This document shows positions 5,306-45,163 of a stretch of 64,000 bases of DNA, in pieces (the stretch's first letter is position 1; every line of letters begins with the position of its first letter). Position numbers and translations under genes: made by a program. Below the pieces are notes generated by a model. It was given only the letters and a program-made list of their open reading frames with translations. It had not been told where the DNA came from and ran no database searches. The DNA comes from Halarcobacter sp. Lineage in GTDB: Bacteria > Campylobacterota > Campylobacteria > Campylobacterales > Arcobacteraceae. The stretch spans positions 2,784,001 to 2,848,000 of the forward strand of contig CP182352.1 in assembly GCA_048571215.1 (NCBI GenBank). The letters are read 5' to 3'.

Positions 5306-5434
5306 ATTTTAGAGTAACTTTTACTTGAATATTTAATTCAAATAGTGAAGCAAGAGTTATCTTGTATCTTATCTAGTCTTTAGGTGAATCATTTTTGATG
5401 ATTGAACAAATTTAATATAAAAGGAACATATATT

Positions 5435-6310
5435 ATGAGAAGAGATTTTTTCAAAAAAGTTGGTCTTGCAGCACTAGCATTAACATTAGGGGCACAAACT
5501 TTAAGTGCAAACCCACAAGATTGGCCAAAAGAGGTTAATTTTGGTGTAATTCCAGTTGCTGGAACTTCAAGTGTAAAAGACACTTTTGGTGCACTTGCAA
5601 AATATTTAGAAAAAACTTTAGGTGTAAAAGTAAACTTACAATCAGCAGGGGACTATGCAGGTGTTATTACTGCTATGCAACACAAACATGTAGATATTGC
5701 ATATTTTGGACCAAAATCTTATGTTGAAGCTGCAAAAAGAGCTGGGGCTGAGGCAGTTGCTACTGAAGTAGATGCAGAGTCTGGACTTCCTGGTTATAAG
5801 GGAATCATAATCTCAAAAAAAGAAAGTGGTCTTAAAACCTTAGAAGATATAAAAGGTAAGAAATGGGCGTTTACTGATTCTAACTCAACTTCTGGAACTT
5901 TAGTACCAACTGTAATGTTTTCTAAAAAAGGGATAGACCCACAAAAATACTTCTCAAAAGTTCTTTATTCAGGTGGTCATGAAGCTTCAATTCTTTCAGT
6001 AAAAGCAGGAAAAGTTGACGCAGCTTCTACAAATAATCTTGATTTTAACAGAGGTCTTGGAAAACACTGGGAAAAAGATGATTTTAATATTATCTGGACT
6101 TCTGATTTAATTCCTGGTTCTCCTATGACAGTAAGAGGTGATCTTCCAACTTCATTTAAAATGGCTGTAAAAGGTGCTTTCCTTTCTTTAAAAGATAAAG
6201 ATATCTTAGCAAAAATGAAAATCAATGGTTATGTTGCAGGTGATGATTCTTTTTACAATCCAGTAAGAGAATTAATCGAATTAAAAAAAGCACTAAAAAA
6301 CAAAAAATAA
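5435..6310 (+). CDS. phnD: Phosphonate ABC transporter substrate-binding protein (likely start ATG 5435)
   Basis: DYAGVITAM, STSGTLVP and GGHEAS motifs; SD AAGGA at 5421; signal peptide. Confidence 0.9.
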   Translation: MRRDFFKKVGLAALALTLGAQTLSANPQDWPKEVNFGVIPVAGTSSVKDTFGALAKYLEKTLGVKVNLQSAGDYAGVITAMQHKHVDIAYFGPKSYVEAAKRAGAEAVATEVDAESGLPGYKGIIISKKESGLKTLEDIKGKKWAFTDSNSTSGTLVPTVMFSKKGIDPQKYFSKVLYSGGHEASILSVKAGKVDAASTNNLDFNRGLGKHWEKDDFNIIWTSDLIPGSPMTVRGDLPTSFKMAVKGAFLSLKDKDILAKMKINGYVAGDDSFYNPVRELIELKKALKNKK

Positions 6311-36971: not shown

Positions 36972-37331
36972 ATGCCTAGAGTTAAAACTGGTGTAGTAAG
37001 AAGAAGAAGACATAAGAAAGTTTTAAAAGCTGCTAGAGGTTTTTATAGCGGTAGAAGTAAACACTTTAGAAAAGCTAAAGAGCAATTAGAACACTCGTTA
37101 GTATATGCTTATAGAGATAGAAAACAGAAAAAAAGAGATATCAGAAAGCTTTGGATCATCAGAATCAATGCTGCTTGTAGATTAAACGATATTAACTATT
37201 CAAGATTTATGAATGGTCTTAAATTAGCAAATATCGAATTAGATAGAAAAATCTTAGCTGATATGGCTATGAATGATGCGGAAGCATTTACTTCATTAGT
37301 AACTAAAGCAAAAGATGCATTAGCAGCATAA
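36972..37331 (+). CDS. rplT: 50S ribosomal protein L20
   Basis: [33 protein letters not shown]. Confidence 0.98.
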
Positions 37332-37350
37332 TAATAAATTTGCAAAATAA

Positions 37351-37389
37351 AAAAGGGTTTGAAGTTTAGACTTCAAGCCCTTTTTTTTT
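37351..37389 (+). terminator. Rho-independent terminator after rplT
   Basis: GGGTTTGAAGT-TTAG-ACTTCAAGCCC followed by T9. Confidence 0.85.
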
Positions 37390-37420
37390 GGTTTTTTTGA
37401 GGACATTGAGCTTTGATTTA

Positions 37421-38020
37421 CTCAAATAGTTTTAGATAATTTCAATTGTATGCAGTTGTCTTGTAGAGCGAGGCTCTCCGCTTTCATACTTTTTAATTGT
37501 AAAAAGTATGGCAAAAAGCAACCAGACGGTTCTTGAAGCTAAAGTTCCCTCCAGTTTTATAATTATTTCCTGACCTGCGGGACTTGATATAAAACGTGAC
37601 ATTTAGTCACCTTTTATATCTTCGAACAAGTCCTCGGTCTTCTCCGAAAATAATTAGAAAACTTCCGGCTTCAACAAAGTCTGGACTAAATATACTAGCC
37701 ACAAACTTCCTAATTTAAATTTAACATAACACCAGTTTAAATAAAATGGTACAAAAAAATGTAAAGGTCCTTATCCCACTTTCCCGCATTTGAGAAACCG
37801 AGTGTTTATTTATCTCTTTTGAAAACAAGTGACTAAACTGTTTGAAGCGTAAAGAAACGTTCTGGGAGAACGTTTTAGCAAGTTTTTAGGCACTCAAAAG
37901 GGATAAGTAATAAGCGAGGGAACCTTCGGCTTCGAAACCCGCGGGATAATTTCTTTGCTACTTTCTTTTTTACAAAAGAAAGTTGAGAAAGCCAAGACGT
38001 ACAGTAGAAATTTAACTACA
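37421..38020. repeat. About 600-bp composite palindromic repeat, unit 1
   Basis: 600-nt periodicity with unit 2 (TTTTAATTGTAAAAAGTATG at 37491 and 38091); nested inverted repeats. Confidence 0.9.
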
Positions 38021-38612
38021 CTCAAATATATTGATAATAGTTTTTATTGTCTGCAATTGTCTTGAAGAACAAGTTCTTCGCTTTCATACTTTTTAATTGT
38101 AAAAAGTATGACAAAAAGCAACCAGACGGTTGTCGAAGCTAAAGTTCCCTTCAGTTTTATAATTATTTCCTGACCTGCGGAACGCCTTCCTAAAAGGTAC
38201 ATTCAGTACCTTTTATCCAGTTGAACGGTCCTCGGTCTTCTCCGAAAATAATTAGAAAACTTCCGGCTTCAACAAAGTCTGGACTAAATACACTAGCCAC
38301 GAACTTTCTTTTGCAAATTGAGTATTACACCAATCAAAATAAAATGGTAGTAAAAATGCAAAGGTCCTTATCCCCACCTTCCCGCATTTGAGAAGCCGAG
38401 CGTTTATTTTGCTTTTCGGAAAAGTTTTTCAACTGTCAGAGCGTAAAAAAACGTAACTAACTTACGTTTTAGCGAGTTTTGAAAAACAGAAAAGTGAAAT
38501 AATAAGCGAGGGTAGTTTCACCTTTGAAACCTGTGGGATAATTTCTTTGCTACTTTCTTTTTTATAAAAGAAAGTCGAGAAAGCCAAGACGTGCAGTAAA
38601 AGTTTATTTATA
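38021..38612. repeat. About 600-bp composite palindromic repeat, unit 2
   Basis: Tandem copy of unit 1 with different inner hairpins. Confidence 0.9.
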
Positions 38613-38904
38613 CTCAAATATATTGATAATAGTTTTAACCCTACATACAACATAATATATTTATCATTTTGTTAAACTATCAAAATTTTCATCCAATAGT
38701 CATACAAAATGATATGCTATTAAGGATATACCTTAATAATCTAACATAAAAAATGTTCTACTTTTTCTTATATTATTTTGTATTTCACTAAATTTAGACT
38801 ATTTAAGGCTTATTTGAGTTAATATTTTTACATTTTAATTGTTAAGATATTAGATGTTTTTATACATTATTTATATATAATGTATAACTAATAAGTAGTT
38901 AGTC
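38613..38904 (+). other. Conserved AT-rich segment ending in attI-like site A (crossover G38898/TT)
   Basis: Homologous to 44443-44718; similarity stops at AAGTA-GTTA; AACTAAT-AAGTA-GTTAGTC has an L box/5-bp spacer/R box layout. Confidence 0.65.
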
Positions 38905-38928
38905 GAAAAATTAAAATAAGGAAGTCCT

Positions 38929-39981
38929 GTGAATTTATATGACTATTTGTATGTTGATTTAGATAAAGCAATTTCATTGTACAGTCAGCTCACGGGAGGC
39001 GTTGTTGAGCTTAAGGAAACTCAATCTGAGAAAAGCATCACCTCAGACAACAAAAGAAATTACGATTTCAAAGTGTTTAAACATGATGCAGGTGGAACCA
39101 CTCAAGACAAAGATCAAGACAAAACAACAATCAAGCCTCATCATGCTCTGCTGCAAGAATTGGAAGCAGAATTATTGTCGTCAGGTTATCTCTTGGACTT
39201 AGACGGTCTTGATGGAGACAAAACCCTTAAAGACCTAGAGCTAAGAGCAACATTGAAAAATGCATTATGTATCAAATGCACAGGGTGAATTGTCATTGAA
39301 GACTATGAAAGAATGAAGAAAATTGGTAAAGACTTTCCTGATATCGTGAAACTTATCAATAGGAGTCATGCCGATTCATTAAAAGACAATCCTGAGTATC
39401 AGGCAATTGAACAGCAGATAGAAGAGCTTGAAAATACGACAGGTGATAGAAATAAGAAATCTAAGGCAAAACAAAAAGCAAAAGAATTAAGAGAAGTACT
39501 AGATAATTTAGTTTCCTCATCGACAGCGCTAGATGCTGTACCTCAGTGGATACTGGACGGGATGAGAACATGGATTGATGCTTTCTTGCCCAATATTACC
39601 AATATTCGAGTCTATCCCTTCAAAGATCAAAATGATGAGCATATCTTTGGGCATTTAGACTCAGAAAACTTCACAATTAATGACCCAACTGCGTTCCATT
39701 TCACATACGGGTCCTTTCCAACAGAAGAGTTTACCATACTTGGAATCGTAACCTCAGTACCACTGAATGAGGAGGAAAGCTTCTCCCCATTGGAAGAATT
39801 TGAAAAAGATGAACTAGAAGATTTCGAAAGTGTTGAAAGTGCTTTTCGCGGTATGTTTAGAGGGTTTGACGGTATGGAGGCAATGGTGAGAACTTGTCGA
39901 TATCCAAGAGTGTTAGTGCATCCAATTTTAGTTTATCGTCACACATCACCTAACAAAGCATTGCAGCGGACAAGCCGCTGA
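38929..39981 (+). pseudogene. Integron cassette 1 gene split by in-frame TGA (38929-39288 and 39313-39981); unknown function, possibly DUF6414-like
   Basis: Both ORFs are in the same frame and read KCTG*IVIEDYERMK across the stop; visibly more GC-rich than flanking genes; terminal stop lies inside attC1. Confidence 0.75.
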
Positions 39982-39995
39982 ATGCGGCGTTAGAT
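39948..39995 (+). other. attC site 1 (48 bp)
   Basis: R'' ACCTAAC, 5-nt spacer, L'' ATTGCAGC (extrahelical G), loop GGACAAGCC, L' GCTGAAT, 5-nt spacer, R' GTTAGAT. Confidence 0.88.
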
Positions 39996-40017
39996 AAACA
40001 TAATAAGGAATATTAAA

Positions 40018-41859
40018 TTGAGCATAGAATTTTTAAAAACAGATTATGAAAAAATAGATTATTTAAGTAATTTATTAAAATCTCGTGCCACAGGAAAGGA
40101 AGCTTCTGATAGTGAATACAAAGCACTAAGAGATGAACTATTATTGAATAGAAAATTAGAACAATATTTTCCTATATGGTTGAAAACCAATGGAGATTTA
40201 AATTCATTTTGGAGATTTATAAAAGAAAAGTTTAAAACATATGATGAAAGAACTAAATTTTTATCTGATGAATTTCTACCTTTGTTAAATTATCTAATGC
40301 CAACAGAATTAAAGCCGGTATCAATTCCAAAAGATATTTTACCATTAGGTCAAGATACTTTAAAACAAAAACTTAATGAATATCTAAAAATACATAATGA
40401 AATAATCAATATATATGGGAATTTTATATTATCTACAAAAGTTTTAGGGAATGGTGGAACTTCTGTTGTTAAAGGATTTAATTTTAGTGGTAAAGAATAT
40501 GCTATTAAATTTTTACTTGAAAATATAAAACAAAAAGAAAGCACAACATTTAAACGATTTAAACAATCTCATTTAAATTTATTGTCCATTCAACATTCAG
40601 GAGTGGTATTACCACAAATACATTTTGATAGCATAAAGATTAATAATGAAACTCAAATCCCATATATAATAATGCCAAAAGCAGAAACTACTTTAAAAGT
40701 TTTTGTGGATGAGAAAAAAAGAAATGATGAATTTAACTTTATATTCTTTGAAAAATTATTTGATAATTTAATAAATATAGTTGATATAATTCATAGCCAT
40801 AATATTATACATAGGGATATAAAACCTGAGAATCTTTTTATTTTGGATGGAAGATTAGTTTTGGGTGATTTTGACATTGCTAAATTTAACGATAATCATC
40901 ACATTAAGCTTGTAGATACAAAAAAAGCCGATAGAATGGCAAATTTTTACTATTCTGCACCAGAACAATCAATAAAAAAATTTGATGAAATTACATTTTC
41001 TGCTGATTGGTATGCAATAGGACAAGTATTGTATTGGCTAATAACTGGCGATACATTAAGAGGTCAAGAGAATATATCTTTGGTTCAATATGATAAACAA
41101 TATGAAAAATACGAAACATTAATAAGAAATTTATTGTCTAATGAACCAAGCCATAGATTAAGTTCAAAAAAAGATATTAAAGAATTTTTAAATAGCAAAA
41201 AACAAATTAGATGGGAAGACACCTTACATAATTTTGATGATATTATTGTTTATAAGTATATGTCTGATTTTGGAGTTTCAAGACAAGGTTTTAAAGAATT
41301 TAACGATGTAGAATCCATTCTTGAAATAATGACTGATTTATCTAATAATACTGATAAATTAGCACTTTGGATAAGTCAAGGTTATTCAGACAGAGATGTT
41401 AAGTATATTTCAAAAAATAAAGACTGCGATGCTTGTTTTTTAATTGACTATTTAGAAATAAAAATTAAAACTATTTGGATATATAAACATTTTAATAGTT
41501 TTGGTGGTAGTACAATTATTATTGAAACAGACAACTATGAAGCTATTAACACAGATGCTAACAATATTGACTATTATGGTCTTTTTGATGGTAATATTAT
41601 AAAACCTGAAGAAGTTGATAGTGGCTGGGCAATAATAAATGGAAAAAGAACTAAACTTGATAAAACAGCAGAAGTGAGGGGAAGAGTTTTAAATAAAACT
41701 ATCTATTTTTTAGCACCATTTAAAGGTCCATTAGTTAAAAATGCTAAAATAATTGATAACTTATATAAATCTTACAATGAGGAAATTGGTCTAAATGAAG
41801 ATTTTTTAGCACCTCTTAAATCAATAAAAAGGAATGATGATATTATGATGATGTCATAA
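40018..41859 (+). CDS. Integron cassette 2: Hanks-type Ser/Thr kinase with helical N-terminal domain (candidate anti-phage kinase)
   Basis: LGNGGTSVV, YAIKF, HRDIKPEN, DFD, YSAPEQ, DWYAIG; bounded by GTTAGAT (39989) and its complement ATCTAAC (41865). Confidence 0.88.
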   Translation: MSIEFLKTDYEKIDYLSNLLKSRATGKEASDSEYKALRDELLLNRKLEQYFPIWLKTNGDLNSFWRFIKEKFKTYDERTKFLSDEFLPLLNYLMPTELKPVSIPKDILPLGQDTLKQKLNEYLKIHNEIINIYGNFILSTKVLGNGGTSVVKGFNFSGKEYAIKFLLENIKQKESTTFKRFKQSHLNLLSIQHSGVVLPQIHFDSIKINNETQIPYIIMPKAETTLKVFVDEKKRNDEFNFIFFEKLFDNLINIVDIIHSHNIIHRDIKPENLFILDGRLVLGDFDIAKFNDNHHIKLVDTKKADRMANFYYSAPEQSIKKFDEITFSADWYAIGQVLYWLITGDTLRGQENISLVQYDKQYEKYETLIRNLLSNEPSHRLSSKKDIKEFLNSKKQIRWEDTLHNFDDIIVYKYMSDFGVSRQGFKEFNDVESILEIMTDLSNNTDKLALWISQGYSDRDVKYISKNKDCDACFLIDYLEIKIKTIWIYKHFNSFGGSTIIIETDNYEAINTDANNIDYYGLFDGNIIKPEEVDSGWAIINGKRTKLDKTAEVRGRVLNKTIYFLAPFKGPLVKNAKIIDNLYKSYNEEIGLNEDFLAPLKSIKRNDDIMMMS

Positions 41860-41864
41860 TGATT

Positions 41865-41877
41865 ATCTAACAAAACC
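41865..41877 (+). other. Truncated attC site 2 (R'' box and spacer only)
   Basis: ATCTAAC-AAAAC begins like attC3 (ACATAAC-AAAAC), then is cut by an IS end. Confidence 0.65.
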
Positions 41878-42202
41878 TACAGACTGTGAATTTAGTCCCA
41901 AATAAACTAAATTTACAGTAAAAATTCAAATTAACTTCCTAAATATCTGATATTTTTTCTTAAAATTTTTTGATATAAAAATTTTTGTAAAAAATAAACC
42001 AAATAAAGTCCAAACACTAAGATATATTCCTCTATATCTTTGGTAATTTGGGTTAAATCTTTATTTTTTATGGCTAAGCATAACTTTTGAAACAGATTTA
42101 TCCCTATAAGATTTAAAAGTCTTCTAAAATTATATGTAAACATAATAAGAGCATTTTCACCAAGTACTTTTTCTTTAGAACGAACTAAAAAATAATCCCA
42201 TA
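41878..42202 (-). mobile_element. IS1182-family transposase C-terminal remnant with terminal repeat
   Basis: WDYFLVRSKEKVLGENALIMFTYNFRRLLNL resembles IS1182 DDE C-termini; terminal ...CACAGTCT; 5' part missing. Confidence 0.7.
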
Positions 42203-42489
42203 TAACGCCCCATAGAATGAATTTCCACTTTTATAATAATTGTTAAGTATCACACCGATTCAAATAAAATGGTATCAAAAAATGCAAAGGTCAATTTCCT
42301 ACCTTTCCGCATTTGAGAAGCCGAGCGTTTATTTATCTCTTTTGAAAACAAGTGACTAAACTGTTTGAAGCCTAAAGAAACGTTCTGGGAGAACGTTTTA
42401 GCAAGTTTTTAGGCACTCAAAAGGGATGAATAATAAGCGAGAGTAGTTTCACCTTCGAAACCTGTGGGATGGTTCGTATAATAAAATAT

Positions 42490-42720
42490 TGGAAATATGA
42501 TAGTATATTTTCATAGAGTTCAATAGAAGATGATATATTGTGTGGGTGGTTGAAGCAATTAAAAATAATTTTAATTAGCTTGTAAAGAAGTTCAATAGTT
42601 ATACTTCAAATTTGAGTGGCAACAAGAACAGTTTTATAACTAGTTCGTATTTACGAGTCTAAAGTTTGTATGACGAAATATCAGGTAGGAATTTTATTCC
42701 TACCCTAACGAACTCTTTAT
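42490..42720 (+). ncRNA. IS110 bridge RNA (target-binding and donor-binding loops); ends approximate
   Basis: LTG GGGTGGTT 42544-51, RTG GTAAAGAAG 42582-90, LDG GTGGCAAC 42616-23, RDG TACGAG 42652-57; each pair flanks an internal hairpin and is closed by a stem. Confidence 0.85.
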
Positions 42721-42741
42721 ATTAATACAAAGGTTCTAGAT

Positions 42742-43725
42742 ATGTATTCTATCGGATTAGATATAAGTAAGTCAACAATTAATATTTATATCCCTATCAA
42801 TGATTTAGATATTCAAATATCAAATAATTTGAAATCACTTAAAGGTTTTTATTCTAAGTTAAAAAAACTTTATAAAAAAGATATAGATAAACTTGTATTT
42901 GTTTTTGAACCTACAGCTAATTATTCCTTTTTAATTAAAAAGTTTTGTTCTGAAAAAAGTATACACTGTTTTATTGTTAATCCAAAGAAAAGTGCTAACT
43001 TTGCTAAAGCAATTGGTCAAAGAAATAAAACTGACCTTTTAGATGCTAGAATGTTATCTCAGATGATAGTTACTGCAAGAAAAAATCAGATTAAAATACC
43101 CATTATTAATCCTTATGCCGAGGAATTAAAAGAGCTTATTACATATTATAAATTTATATCAAAAATTAAAACTCAAAATAAAAATCATTTGGAAGCTTTA
43201 GTTTCAAAAGATGCTTCATCTATTATAATTAAATCATTAAGAAAAGATATAAAATCATTTGAAAAAAAAGAAAAAGATATTCTTATTGAGATAAAAAAAG
43301 TTATTGCAAAAGACAAAAATTTACATAATGCATTTTTAAATATCCAAACTATAAAAGGCATAGGAGAATTATCTTCAATTATATTATTACACCATTTTAT
43401 ACAATATCCTGATACAAATCAAAAGCAAATTGTTTCATTAGCTGGATTAGATCCAGTTAGTAGAGATTCTGGTTCATCAATAAAAGGAAAAACAAAAATA
43501 TCAAAATCTGGTTCAAAATTATGTAGGGGTACATTATTTATGGCAGTAATGACAGCGATACAATACAATGAAGAATTAAAAATATTTTATAATAGATTAA
43601 AAGAGAATGGCAAACATACTACTGTAGCACAAATTGCTGTAATGCGAAAAATGATTGTAATTGCTCACTCATTATATAAAAATAATAATATATATGACCC
43701 TAATAAATTTAAAAGTATATCATAA
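42742..43725 (+). CDS. IS110-family DEDD recombinase/transposase
   Basis: GLDISK, FEPT, KTDLLDA (DEDD); IKGIG; AGLDP..RDSG (catalytic Ser); AVMRKM. Confidence 0.95.
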   Translation: MYSIGLDISKSTINIYIPINDLDIQISNNLKSLKGFYSKLKKLYKKDIDKLVFVFEPTANYSFLIKKFCSEKSIHCFIVNPKKSANFAKAIGQRNKTDLLDARMLSQMIVTARKNQIKIPIINPYAEELKELITYYKFISKIKTQNKNHLEALVSKDASSIIIKSLRKDIKSFEKKEKDILIEIKKVIAKDKNLHNAFLNIQTIKGIGELSSIILLHHFIQYPDTNQKQIVSLAGLDPVSRDSGSSIKGKTKISKSGSKLCRGTLFMAVMTAIQYNEELKIFYNRLKENGKHTTVAQIAVMRKMIVIAHSLYKNNNIYDPNKFKSIS

Positions 43726-43843
43726 ATATTAGATTTAAATATTTTATATTTTATCATTTTTTAAGGTGGCAACTTCTTTGCTACTTTCTTTTTCAGAAAA
43801 GAAAGTCGAGAAAGCTAAGAGGTACAATAAAAGTTTATTCACA

Positions 43844-44442
43844 TTCAAATATTTTGAAAATAGTTTTAATTGTATACACCCTCTTGTAGAGCAAAGCTCT
43901 CCGCTTTCTCACTTTTTAGTTGTAAAAAGTAAGACAAAAAGCAACCAGACGGTTGTCGAAGCTAAAGTCCCCTACAGCTTTCTAATTATTTCCTGACCTG
44001 CGGAACGCCTTCCTAAAAGGTACATTCAGTACCTTTTATCCAGTTGAACGGTCCTCGGTCTTTTCCGAAAATAATTAAAAACCTTCCGGCTTCAACAAAG
44101 TCTGGACTAAATACACTAGCCACAAACTTCCTAATTTAAATTTAACATAACACCAGTTTAAATAAAATGGTACAAAAAAATGCAAAGGTCAGTTTCCCAC
44201 CTTCCCGCATTTGAGAAGCCGAGTGTTTATTTATCTCTTTTGAAAACAAGTGACTAAACTGTCTGAAGCGTAAAAAAATGTGCTGGGAGCACATTTTAGC
44301 AAGTTTTTAGGCACTCAAAAGGGATGAATGAAAAGCTCGGGGAGCTTCTGCCTTCGAAACCTGCAGGATGGTTTCTTTGCTACTTTCTTTTTCAGAAAAG
44401 AAAGTCGAGAAAGCCAAGAGGTACAGCAAAAGTTTATTTACA
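43844..44442. repeat. About 600-bp composite palindromic repeat, unit 4
   Basis: Full-length copy; left inner hairpin like unit 2, centre and right arm like unit 1. Confidence 0.9.
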
Positions 44443-44721
44443 CCTAAATATATTGATAATAGTTTTAGCCAATCACAATATAATATATTTATCATTTTGT
44501 TAAACTATCAAAATTTTCACCAAATAGTCATACAAAATGATAGGATATTACGGATATACGTTAATAATCTAACATATAAAAGTACATATTTATTTACTTT
44601 ATTTTATATTTTATTGAATTTTGACTATTTAAGGCTTATTTGAGTTAATATCTTTATGTTAAGATATTAGATGTTTTTATACATTATTTATATATAATAT
44701 ATTACTAGTAAGTAGTTATGT
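44443..44721 (+). other. Conserved AT-rich segment ending in attI-like site B (crossover G44715/TT)
   Basis: Second copy of 38613-38901; TACTAGT-AAGTA-GTTATGT; GTTATGT is the exact complement of attC3 R'' ACATAAC. Confidence 0.7.
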
Positions 44722-44737
44722 TCAGAGGAGATAAATT

Positions 44738-45100
44738 TTGTTAGAAGTCATAATATTTGCATTAATAATAATCATTTTGGGTGTACTCCCAAGTATTTGG
44801 TACCTTAAAAGGAAAGAAAAACCTGCTGAAGTTAATCAAAAACCGAATATTATAATAGTAATTTTAGGTTCGATACTTTTAATTGTAAATACATATTTTA
44901 CATATATTTTGAATAAAGGCTCTATAGCATATGTTTTTGGTGCGGTATATTTTATTCCAATTGTTTTAATCCTAATTTTCAATGAAAATTGGAATAAAAG
45001 ATGGAAAATTATACTGTTTACACAGTTTATAATTTTCTTAAGTGTTTTGGGTAATTTGATGTCAGTAGCTCAAGAAGTTGCTAAAACTCAAGGAACATAA
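44738..45100 (+). CDS. Integron cassette 3: small multi-pass membrane protein of unknown function
   Basis: SD GAGGAG, four hydrophobic segments, stop codon overlapping R'' of attC3. Confidence 0.8.
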   Translation: MLEVIIFALIIIILGVLPSIWYLKRKEKPAEVNQKPNIIIVILGSILLIVNTYFTYILNKGSIAYVFGAVYFIPIVLILIFNENWNKRWKIILFTQFIIFLSVLGNLMSVAQEVAKTQGT

Positions 45101-45163
45101 CAAAACATTGGAGAGAAATATTTGACCCTGCGGCTCAAATATTTCTCAACTCAAACGTTATAC
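45095..45163 (+). other. attC site 3 (69 bp)
   Basis: ACATAAC-AAAAC-ATTGGAGAGAAATATTTGA-CCCTGCGGC-TCAAATATTTCTCAA-CTCAAAC-GTTATAC; long imperfect palindrome between RYYYAAC-like and GTTRRRY-like boxes. Confidence 0.88.

Follow-up and report, generated by a model that had tools for sequence, protein, structure and literature searches.

Two integrase-less cassette arrays behind rplT

The window analysed here, a 64,000-nucleotide stretch (C1:2784001-2848000) of the Halarcobacter sp. genome under study (G000; one contig, C1, of 3.61 Mb and 28.5% G+C), carries two successive modules in which structured repeats precede an attI-like platform and integron cassettes, with no integrase gene in the window. 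The first module lies directly behind the end of a thrS-infC-rpmI-rplT operon (we take its third gene, recognised by eye, to be rpmI), whose rplT occupies, together with a terminator-like hairpin, positions 36972-37386 of the forward strand. Repeat unit 1 consists of a type A half (37457-37700, reverse strand), a rod hairpin of ~210 nt plus a terminal hairpin, and a type B half (37718-37996, forward), its distant inverted homologue; unit 2 repeats this order (A, 38058-38298, reverse, fold z-score -6.0; B, 38315-38588, forward), with a promoter-like TTGAGT-N16-TAAAAT, a consensus match only, at the start of its B half (38318-38345). There follow what is probably an eroded vestige of the opening ~12 codons of intI (38607-38641, reverse; matched with gaps to the starts of six native intI genes, shuffle p 0-0.07) and orphan platform 1 (38613-38901, forward), an intI-attI intergenic region of the subtype we term gamma, with the crossover G38898/TT. 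Cassette 1 (38898-39988, forward as are all cassettes and attC sites here) holds a DUF6414 gene broken by a TGA stop into two pieces (38929-39288 and 39313-39981) and closes with a short, complete attC (attC1, 39948-39995; crossover G39989), whose R'' box ACCTAAC agrees with the expected GACTAAC at 5 of 7 positions. Cassette 2 (39989-41879) encodes a 613-residue Ser/Thr kinase-domain protein (40018-41859) whose kinase domain is like that of defence kinases (PD-T4-6 and Stk2 profiles); the R'' box (41865-41871) is the sole remainder of its attC, cut at 41880 by the remnant of an insertion sequence (IS).

That remnant (41880-42202), which in a longer copy includes a DUF772 transposase fragment, is itself cut off by Z (42203-42241, forward), the sharp left edge of the second module. 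Module 2 continues with a type B repeat (42242-43844, forward) split by an IS110 element (42475-43773, forward; transposase 42742-43725) that has four identical copies in the genome, every one at the same base of a B repeat, then with unit 3 (A, 43882-44121, reverse; B, 44138-44418, forward), orphan platform 2, likewise gamma (44446-44718, forward; crossover G44715/TT), and cassette 3 (44715-45156), whose 120-residue product (44738-45100) matched no Pfam or NCBIfam family and whose attC is complete (attC3, 45095-45163; crossover G45157). On the bottom strand, attC1 and attC3 fold with z-scores of -4.65 and -6.49.

The first-pass annotation of this DNA had described a twice-occurring module of two repeat units and an AT-rich segment, ending at an attI-like site. 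Its account of the segment holds: the likeness between the two copies stops at AAGTA/GTT, that is at G38898 and G44715, a TATAAT (38876-38881 and 44693-44698; a candidate cassette promoter, Pc) lies 16 nt 5' of the crossover G in both, and the open reading frames (ORFs) beyond are unrelated and short-leadered. Exact, too, are the complements it reported between R'' boxes and first bases, GTTAGAT/ATCTAAC for cassette 2 and GTTATGT/ACATAAC for cassette 3. Three details needed correction: module 2 contains Z, an IS110-split half-unit and one full unit, hence 1.5 units and not two; an attC closes cassettes 1 and 3 but not the truncated cassette 2; and the gene of cassette 1 is broken by a stop. 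The window is free of intI, as claimed, the best IntI tblastn match reaching E 0.06 across 38 amino acids. With two complete attC sites, a third interrupted and no intI beside attI, the locus falls under the definition of an attC cluster that has no integrase (CALIN) and outside that of a complete integron; attC1 and attC3 are 5.1 kb apart, and the 4-kb rule of IntegronFinder might separate them.

We discount almost entirely an assembly artefact or a chance likeness of AT-rich DNA. The low G+C content and the many repeats of the genome would favour such an error, but contigs from sequencing run X3 cross the junctions without a difference (38856-41909 and 44669-45126; four runs were compared, of which X1 and X3 belong to one study and may be source material), the repeats stand at ~10-20x single-copy read depth, with loose contig ends at 38902, 45097 and 45162, shuffled and reversed controls give 0 matches, and the same architecture is found in six relatives, which together refute it.

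One distant integrase and many attI platforms

The genome has one intact intI, at C1:895245-896189 and thus ~1.7 Mb from the window, which scores 398 bits against a cut-off of 265 and whose catalytic R, K, H-x-x-R, H and Y are, by eye, all present. The native attI (C1:896496), divergent from this sole intI, shares its core with the window sites, the outcome that the first-pass annotation had proposed to look for. Besides the native site, the complete genome holds 20 further copies at 10 loci. A matrix search (the matrix was trained on 22 sites and is to that extent circular) gives 20 sites more than 25 bits, and none in three local shuffles; one more copy has a 1-bp deletion, and the 21 sites lie in 10 loci, each replication arm holding both orientations. 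A fixed attI pattern finds 18 sites in G000 and 0 in the reversed sequence. The same pattern occurs at least once in 21 of the 36 family genomes used for it and for the repeat model (searches for gamma and for junctions covered 184; G002, G003, G006 and similar labels denote relatives used for comparison), and the attI core lies beside intI in 13 of 16 intI loci of relatives. A simple attI site consists of an imperfect L box, a 5-bp spacer and an R box; by our count table the present sites keep YAA(T) at -9 to -6, then five bases, then GTT, which fits this geometry, and they keep each position of the TATAAT at -22 to -17 in 20-22 of 22 cases.

Comparison of the 330 nt upstream of orphan sites with native intI-attI regions of relatives resolves at least five platform alleles in G000. 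Orphan and native regions are 88-94% alike for G024 and G019, 91-92% for G017, 87% for G026 and 88% for G035; for gamma, no native region exceeds ~71% (79% in the case of a gamma/delta hybrid). Seven places retain the opening 12 codons of intI (22-44 bits; background 99.99th percentile ~0), and all seven stubs abut the repeat at the same base. When the 184 genomes were searched for this junction with a pattern that omitted the stub bases to avoid bias, 26 matches reduced to 18 short repeat ends (seven chance matches and one A-type end were dropped), and 13 of these 18 short B ends join an intI stub, one of them partly. A single ancestral fusion with later allele swaps would produce this pattern, and so would repeated site-specific fusion. 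Judged by these alignments, the segment is the promoter region and attI of an integron whose integrase gene has been removed, and the platforms at large, which comprise at least five alleles, are integron front ends that have been decapitated, a view that goes beyond the first-pass annotation. A hairpin at the 5' end of the platform was also considered as a degenerate attC and rejected, since in alignment it falls on the part of the native region that adjoins the start of intI. Two intI-start-like strings (C1:1693966 and 1696828) lack an attI at the distance where one would be expected; a weak attI-like site lies nearby at C1:1697710.

The same homology bears on the idea that cassettes went off target into genomic attG sites, here AT-rich promoters resembling attI. 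IntI does insert at GWT sites genome-wide (10.1101/2022.09.11.507474; published sources are represented throughout by excerpts), but the sites described here carry 200-290 bp of native intI-attI region as well as intI stubs, far above a three-base consensus; we regard the idea as highly implausible and as refuted by platform homology.

Cassettes begin at the crossover and differ from site to site

Other copies of the segment, checked along the lines that the first-pass annotation had suggested, stop at the same crossover and are followed by different DNA: across 23 sites there are no cross-matches, and the first 300 nt have nothing in common. A fixed rule finds an attC at 19 of the 23 sites. 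The R'' box is the exact complement of the cassette's first bases in 12 of these 19, whereas 10,000 permutations gave 1.26 on average and never more than 6; two of the misses hold an exact inner R''. Homology that stops at G/TT, and these 12 matches against 1.26 by permutation, agree with an attI site, as does the core shared with the native attI. An attC profile built from 16 clear sites yields 29 matches, all 29 at attI loci (16 of them trained the profile); RNAalifold returned no consensus for the 16-site alignment, and a rule-based attC scan of the genome was dropped as noisy (120 candidates).

Within G000, platform pairs that are 96-98% alike hold different cassettes. Pfam searches of 39 of the 63 cassette ORFs returned TIR-Mrr, Mrr, HNH, SEFIR, kinase, toxin-antitoxin, methyltransferase and beta-lactamase-fold families, with no family for 14 of the 39, and PADLOC, applied to 18 proteins, agrees on the SEFIR, Mrr-type and kinase profiles and gives weak SIR2 matches. 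The beta-lactamase-fold proteins (PF00144 and PF00753) reside in two cassettes, at L081:11454-12893 (reverse) and L080:12403-13176 (forward); these are broad families, and resistance is not implied. The native array opens with an ORF-less cassette of ~180 nt that contains nested hairpins and recurs two cassettes further along, its two copies being 99.5% identical (L080:3493-3676 and 5384-5567; C1:896493 and 898384). A DUF772-type IS sits 8-9 nt 3' of an attC R'' box at six places in the genome (window 41880-42202; C1:632425, 900501, 960355, 1471423 and 1937602). Some IS are known as the IS1111-attC group; the DUF772 type is an attC-targeting IS outside it.

A covarying repeat accompanies most platforms

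Each 600-nt repeat unit comprises two distant homologues, A and B, placed head to head, each half being a covarying rod hairpin of ~210 nt. Among 25 type A copies, 43 of 59 predicted pairs show two-sided changes, a count reached by 0 of 500 shuffles, with slid controls at 11-18 (the structure was derived from this same set of aligned, related copies); counted on the strand that leaves the centre, there are 48 G-T pairs and 17 A-C. A single covariance model detects 64 copies in G000, mostly as head-to-head pairs, and matches in 25 of the 36 family genomes and 1 of 24 others, the named loci belonging to Halarcobacter, Arcobacter and Campylobacteraceae (three loci). Nothing in Rfam 15, 6S included, comes near the gathering score for the repeat, and searches of plasmids and phages gave no match.

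The link between repeat and attI site noted in the window extends through the genome: a repeat lies at most 750 nt upstream of 16 of the 20 orphans, 48 of the 64 repeats have an attI at most 5 kb away, a zone that makes up 4% of the genome, and the association recurs in relatives. Other copies stand by themselves, frequently where two genes converge. Fixed positions in the repeat are occupied by two IS110 families, 74% alike, one in type B (the four identical copies) and one in type A (three copies), and could serve as a ready pair for testing bridge-RNA targets; besides the window element, copies lie at C1:383398-384873, 424754-426211 and 969469-970913. The genome's sole Y1 transposase gene was considered as partner of the repeat and rejected, as no repeat copies flank it, and an arrangement of A and B as the ends of one transposon enclosing a gene was seen neither in G000 nor in the loci of relatives examined.

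An A/B repeat also stands behind rplT in 5 of 22 genus relatives, followed in G012 by a shortened attI platform and another gene. The site behind the rplT terminator (window 37387-37420; L207, L212, L205, L215 and L217) is an insertion hot spot. The Vibrio superintegron also adjoins rplT, a likeness that is probably coincidence.

Short inserts recur in repeats and integrase genes alike. One of ~23 nt breaks intI at the same codon in L045 (G017) and L046 (G015), where the platforms are 79% alike, and is found in several G000 repeat copies, for example near C1:971008, 1717543 and 1803810; a second, palindromic and ~20 nt long, recurs in other repeat copies. The two inserts are possibly footprints or a very small mobile element. 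At L139 (G006), intI has an internal deletion (residues 193-225) and lies beside a platform and an array with four attC matches.

The gamma platform and proposed loading in trans

The gamma signature occurs in 22 copies in 7 of the 184 family genomes, all of one genus. Of 21 readable copies, 20 have a B repeat upstream; no copy has an intI within 1450 nt upstream (two contigs are shorter), and the 400 nt downstream differ between any two copies. Two metagenome copies follow the same rule, for a total of 24 copies with 24 different downstream sequences. Neither the 184 genomes nor a metagenome scan contains a gamma platform beside a native intI. At a first orthologous address, bounded by genes that we take to be carA and one for a sugar kinase, what follows gamma is a cassette for a 281-residue Mrr protein in G000, a 1180-residue ORF in G002 and a 157-residue cassette in G017, and G003, G006 and G016 have no module; at a second, G000 carries another allele, G006 and G016 carry gamma with different cassettes, and G003 is empty. 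Since different first cassettes occupy the same address and gamma is found as an orphan only, these data support loading in trans. Furthermore, a 4071-nt module is 97.9% identical between G000 and G002, against 82.7 and 92.4% for its flanks and 82-88% for other loci (one gene, 94%), from which we conclude that the whole module was recently transferred between species.

We therefore regard as probable a model in which some 20 integrase-less front ends, fused to a structured repeat, are loaded in trans by the single distant IntI, their modules multiplying and moving by recombination between repeats. Each platform represents an intI-attI intergenic region, with the repeat end joined to the 12-codon stub in seven copies, and cassettes have their beginning precisely at G/TT and are closed by a complementary R'' box. 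An IntI encoded elsewhere would have inserted these cassettes after the platforms were orphaned, as suggested by an allele present solely as orphans and followed by different DNA after every copy, orthologous addresses included. Natural competence occurs in this bacterial group, and the 4-kb module shared between species probably moved by natural transformation and recombination via the 600-nt repeat and flanking genes; the same repeat would drive tandem gain and loss. If the TATAAT acts as Pc, ~20 cassettes, several of them defence-like, would stand together in the expressed first position. The dispersed attI platform envisaged in the first-pass annotation is thus supported by comparison between genomes, its service in trans is what we infer, and one CALIN with its own attI provides a precedent (PMC9892861).

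Several observations weigh against this model. The repeat is neither necessary nor sufficient for the attI link: orphans without it occur in G000 and in relatives, and G027 and G036 hold 15 and 13 repeat copies and no match to the attI pattern. Some copies are damaged (A/TT at 634881 and 904738, the 1-bp deletion at 956999, degenerate sites at 899725 and 432736), and among relatives one gamma copy has no core and two are changed at the crossover. Over six copies, differences from the consensus amount to 3.8% in the gamma core and 2.5% in the next 49 columns, against 7.5% further up, so that the core is not much better preserved than the DNA upstream of it. The module common to G000 and G002 keeps the same cassettes, with no turnover since its transfer; arrays are short and often interrupted by IS; and gamma is held by G012 and G023, which have no intI match, and by G006 and G017, whose intI is broken, so that these landing pads persist without any enzyme.

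The same facts suit a history in which the platforms arrived already loaded by horizontal transfer, lost their integrase and are now inert islands whose diversity stems from the complete integrons of their donors. Four of the at least five alleles match native platforms of relatives, the damaged cores, the stasis of the G000/G002 module and the pads in genomes without intI agree with it, and the loss of intI has been put forward as a source of CALINs (PMC4889954, PMC8618304). The diversity of cassettes would likewise be explained without action in trans if a donor outside the sample had a native gamma integron. Such a donor is, however, absent from the 184 family genomes and the metagenome scan, all readable gamma copies but one share the repeat junction and yet all 24 downstream sequences differ, and platforms 96-98% alike hold different cassettes. 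We consider this history unlikely and retain loading in trans.

Z ends and the question of transposition

Fourteen modules open with a B repeat. A full Z marks the beginning of 11 of them and a partial Z that of 2, and outside Z lie attC sites, platforms and ORFs that are cut off. Z also occurs as an inverted pair around truncated Y1 (HUH) transposase genes in G014, G018 and G055. It reads GGGGTGTW, in agreement with 6 of 8 positions of the GGGGWSAS motif (PMC3733652), the A not among them. Going by its sequence context, Z is a terminal repeat of the TIRtron type and fits the TIRYT subclass (PMC6006769, PMC3733652). None of 25 loci has an intact Y1 gene with Z ends, every gene with Z being truncated, which makes present activity of Z doubtful; full-length Y1 homologues have other GGGG-type ends or none detected, and the only Y1 gene of G000 has GGGGACAG ends.

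These findings raise a further explanation, in which repeat and Z form an HUH element (Y1/TIRYT) that is not autonomous, cuts into intI at a base it favours and carries copies of the downstream platform and cassettes to other locations, a chromosomal counterpart of integrons mobilised by miniature inverted-repeat transposable elements (MITEs) or as integron mobilisation units (IMUs). The unrelated, truncated DNA outside Z, the Z pairs around Y1 remnants, the junction shared by alleles just 65-75% alike and by 13 of 18 short B ends, and a repeat fold kept by compensatory change all speak for it. Against it stand the want of an intact Y1 gene with Z ends in any of the 25 loci and the different ends of the G000 gene, cassettes without a closing end, a first window module without Z, and a far side of the repeat that in no copy holds the rest of intI; one ancestral fusion, followed by swaps of alleles within the conserved stub, accounts for the junction equally well, and no IS91-type transposase was found. 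We give transposition of this kind little credence, and capture by a rolling-circle IS91/ISCR element was rejected, no Y2 transposase having been found. Within the model of loading in trans, Z, as a TIRtron end, forms the boundary of many inner modules, whose insertion it may have aided.

More speculatively, the two processes could be parts of one system, a distributed integron built by a second mobile element: the ~210-nt repeat, moved by Y1 via Z, would cut intI at codon 12 and spread the platform to ~20 addresses and between species, and a shared IntI would keep all of them loaded. We hold this combined reading to be possible but tentative.

Arrays of short ORF pairs with a shared start, interspersed with Z and GGGGACAG repeats, lie at L130 (C1:2552000-2562500), C1:807500-811500 and C1:3394000-3398500, one of them adjoining the sole Y1 gene. 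By eye the pairs resemble orphan tips of polymorphic bacterial toxins with their immunity genes, and HUH-linked shuffling of such tips is possible.

Relation to known integron and repeat systems

Class 1 integrons in IMUs or flanked by MITEs were reportedly described by Poirel and by Gillings in 2009. In these systems, reviewed in PMC3184786, a non-coding, folding repeat lies beside a defective intI, attI and cassette are kept, and the unit moves without an enzyme of its own, all of which recalls the present modules; they differ in being flanked on either side by one of two identical MITEs that have terminal inverted repeats, in showing target duplications and in lying on plasmids, whereas in G000 the repeat lies upstream only, in head-to-head pairs, on the chromosome and in many copies, and nothing repeat-like follows attC3.

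CALINs, with attC cassettes distant from any intI, have been attributed to integrase loss and IS-driven rearrangement, among other origins (PMC4889954; for single attC sites lacking an integrase, SALINs, 10.1101/2022.09.11.507474). The G000 arrays share with CALINs and SALINs the position of cassettes away from intI and within reach of an IntI encoded elsewhere, but while CALINs are treated in these excerpts as cut off from Pc and as donors, the present arrays keep attI and a candidate Pc and would be acceptors. In the CALIN survey attI was searched for classes 1-3 only and pseudogenes via the C-terminal domain only (PMC4889954), so that such pads and 12-codon N-terminal stubs would have escaped it; IntegronFinder tables may list the present loci as CALINs or SALINs. 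The closest case is the CALIN with its own attI in a Shewanella prophage (2023, PMC9892861), where a second attI heads an integrase-less array on the same replicon as a complete integron. There, one extra site lies in a prophage, as against 20 at ten chromosomal loci with at least five alleles here, and the excerpts report neither a repeat link nor comparative evidence of reloading. In Xanthomonas, platform and array outlast an inactivated or deleted intI and CALINs occupy conserved loci, but this is one ancestral platform at ilvD gone quiet, and multiplication of attI is not described in the part of the source at hand (10.1101/2025.06.18.660453).

As for the repeat, doublets of repetitive extragenic palindromic (REP) sequences, known as REPINs, and bacterial interspersed mosaic elements (BIMEs) are palindromic, lie outside genes as inverted pairs, in many cases where two genes converge, and are targeted by IS110, and Z has a GGGG-type end and flanks Y1 genes as in TIRtron subclass 2.1 (TIRYT) (PMC6006769, PMC3733652). 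The A/B repeat is likewise extragenic, paired in inverted orientation and present in many copies; it lacks the 20-40 bp stem with a GTAG or CGTC foot beside a gene for a REP-associated tyrosine transposase (RAYT), being ~210 nt long, roughly ten times a REP, with neither foot seen and no adjacent cognate transposase gene. A link to integron platforms is not described in the excerpts from this literature (PMC6006769, PMC3733652). Nor did we find, in the literature covered (including PMC9668308, PMC8266576, 10.64898/2026.03.17.712381 and 10.1101/2020.03.09.984088; most subscription journals and all supplements lay outside its scope), a description of many attI copies per genome or of the A/B repeat. 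What the G000 case adds is the repeat link, the fixed intI junction, an orphan-only allele and the comparison across species.

Implications

The structured repeat is a separate lead in its own right, a strongly covarying element, seen in genomes like those of Arcobacteraceae, that is the target of two IS110 families and travels with cassette modules between species. The gamma allele, in turn, makes loading in trans directly testable, with a defined, orphan-only site of 290 bp and a candidate enzyme in the same genome. Integrons are usually drawn as one integrase, one attI and one cassette queue of which the first few are expressed, and CALINs outnumber complete integrons. If integrase-less arrays keep a working attI and promoter and are reloaded from afar, part of the CALIN pool would be active acceptors, invisible to current tools, and one cell could express many first-position cassettes simultaneously; should the distributed integron prove true, many defence and stress cassettes would be expressed in parallel and not one by one.

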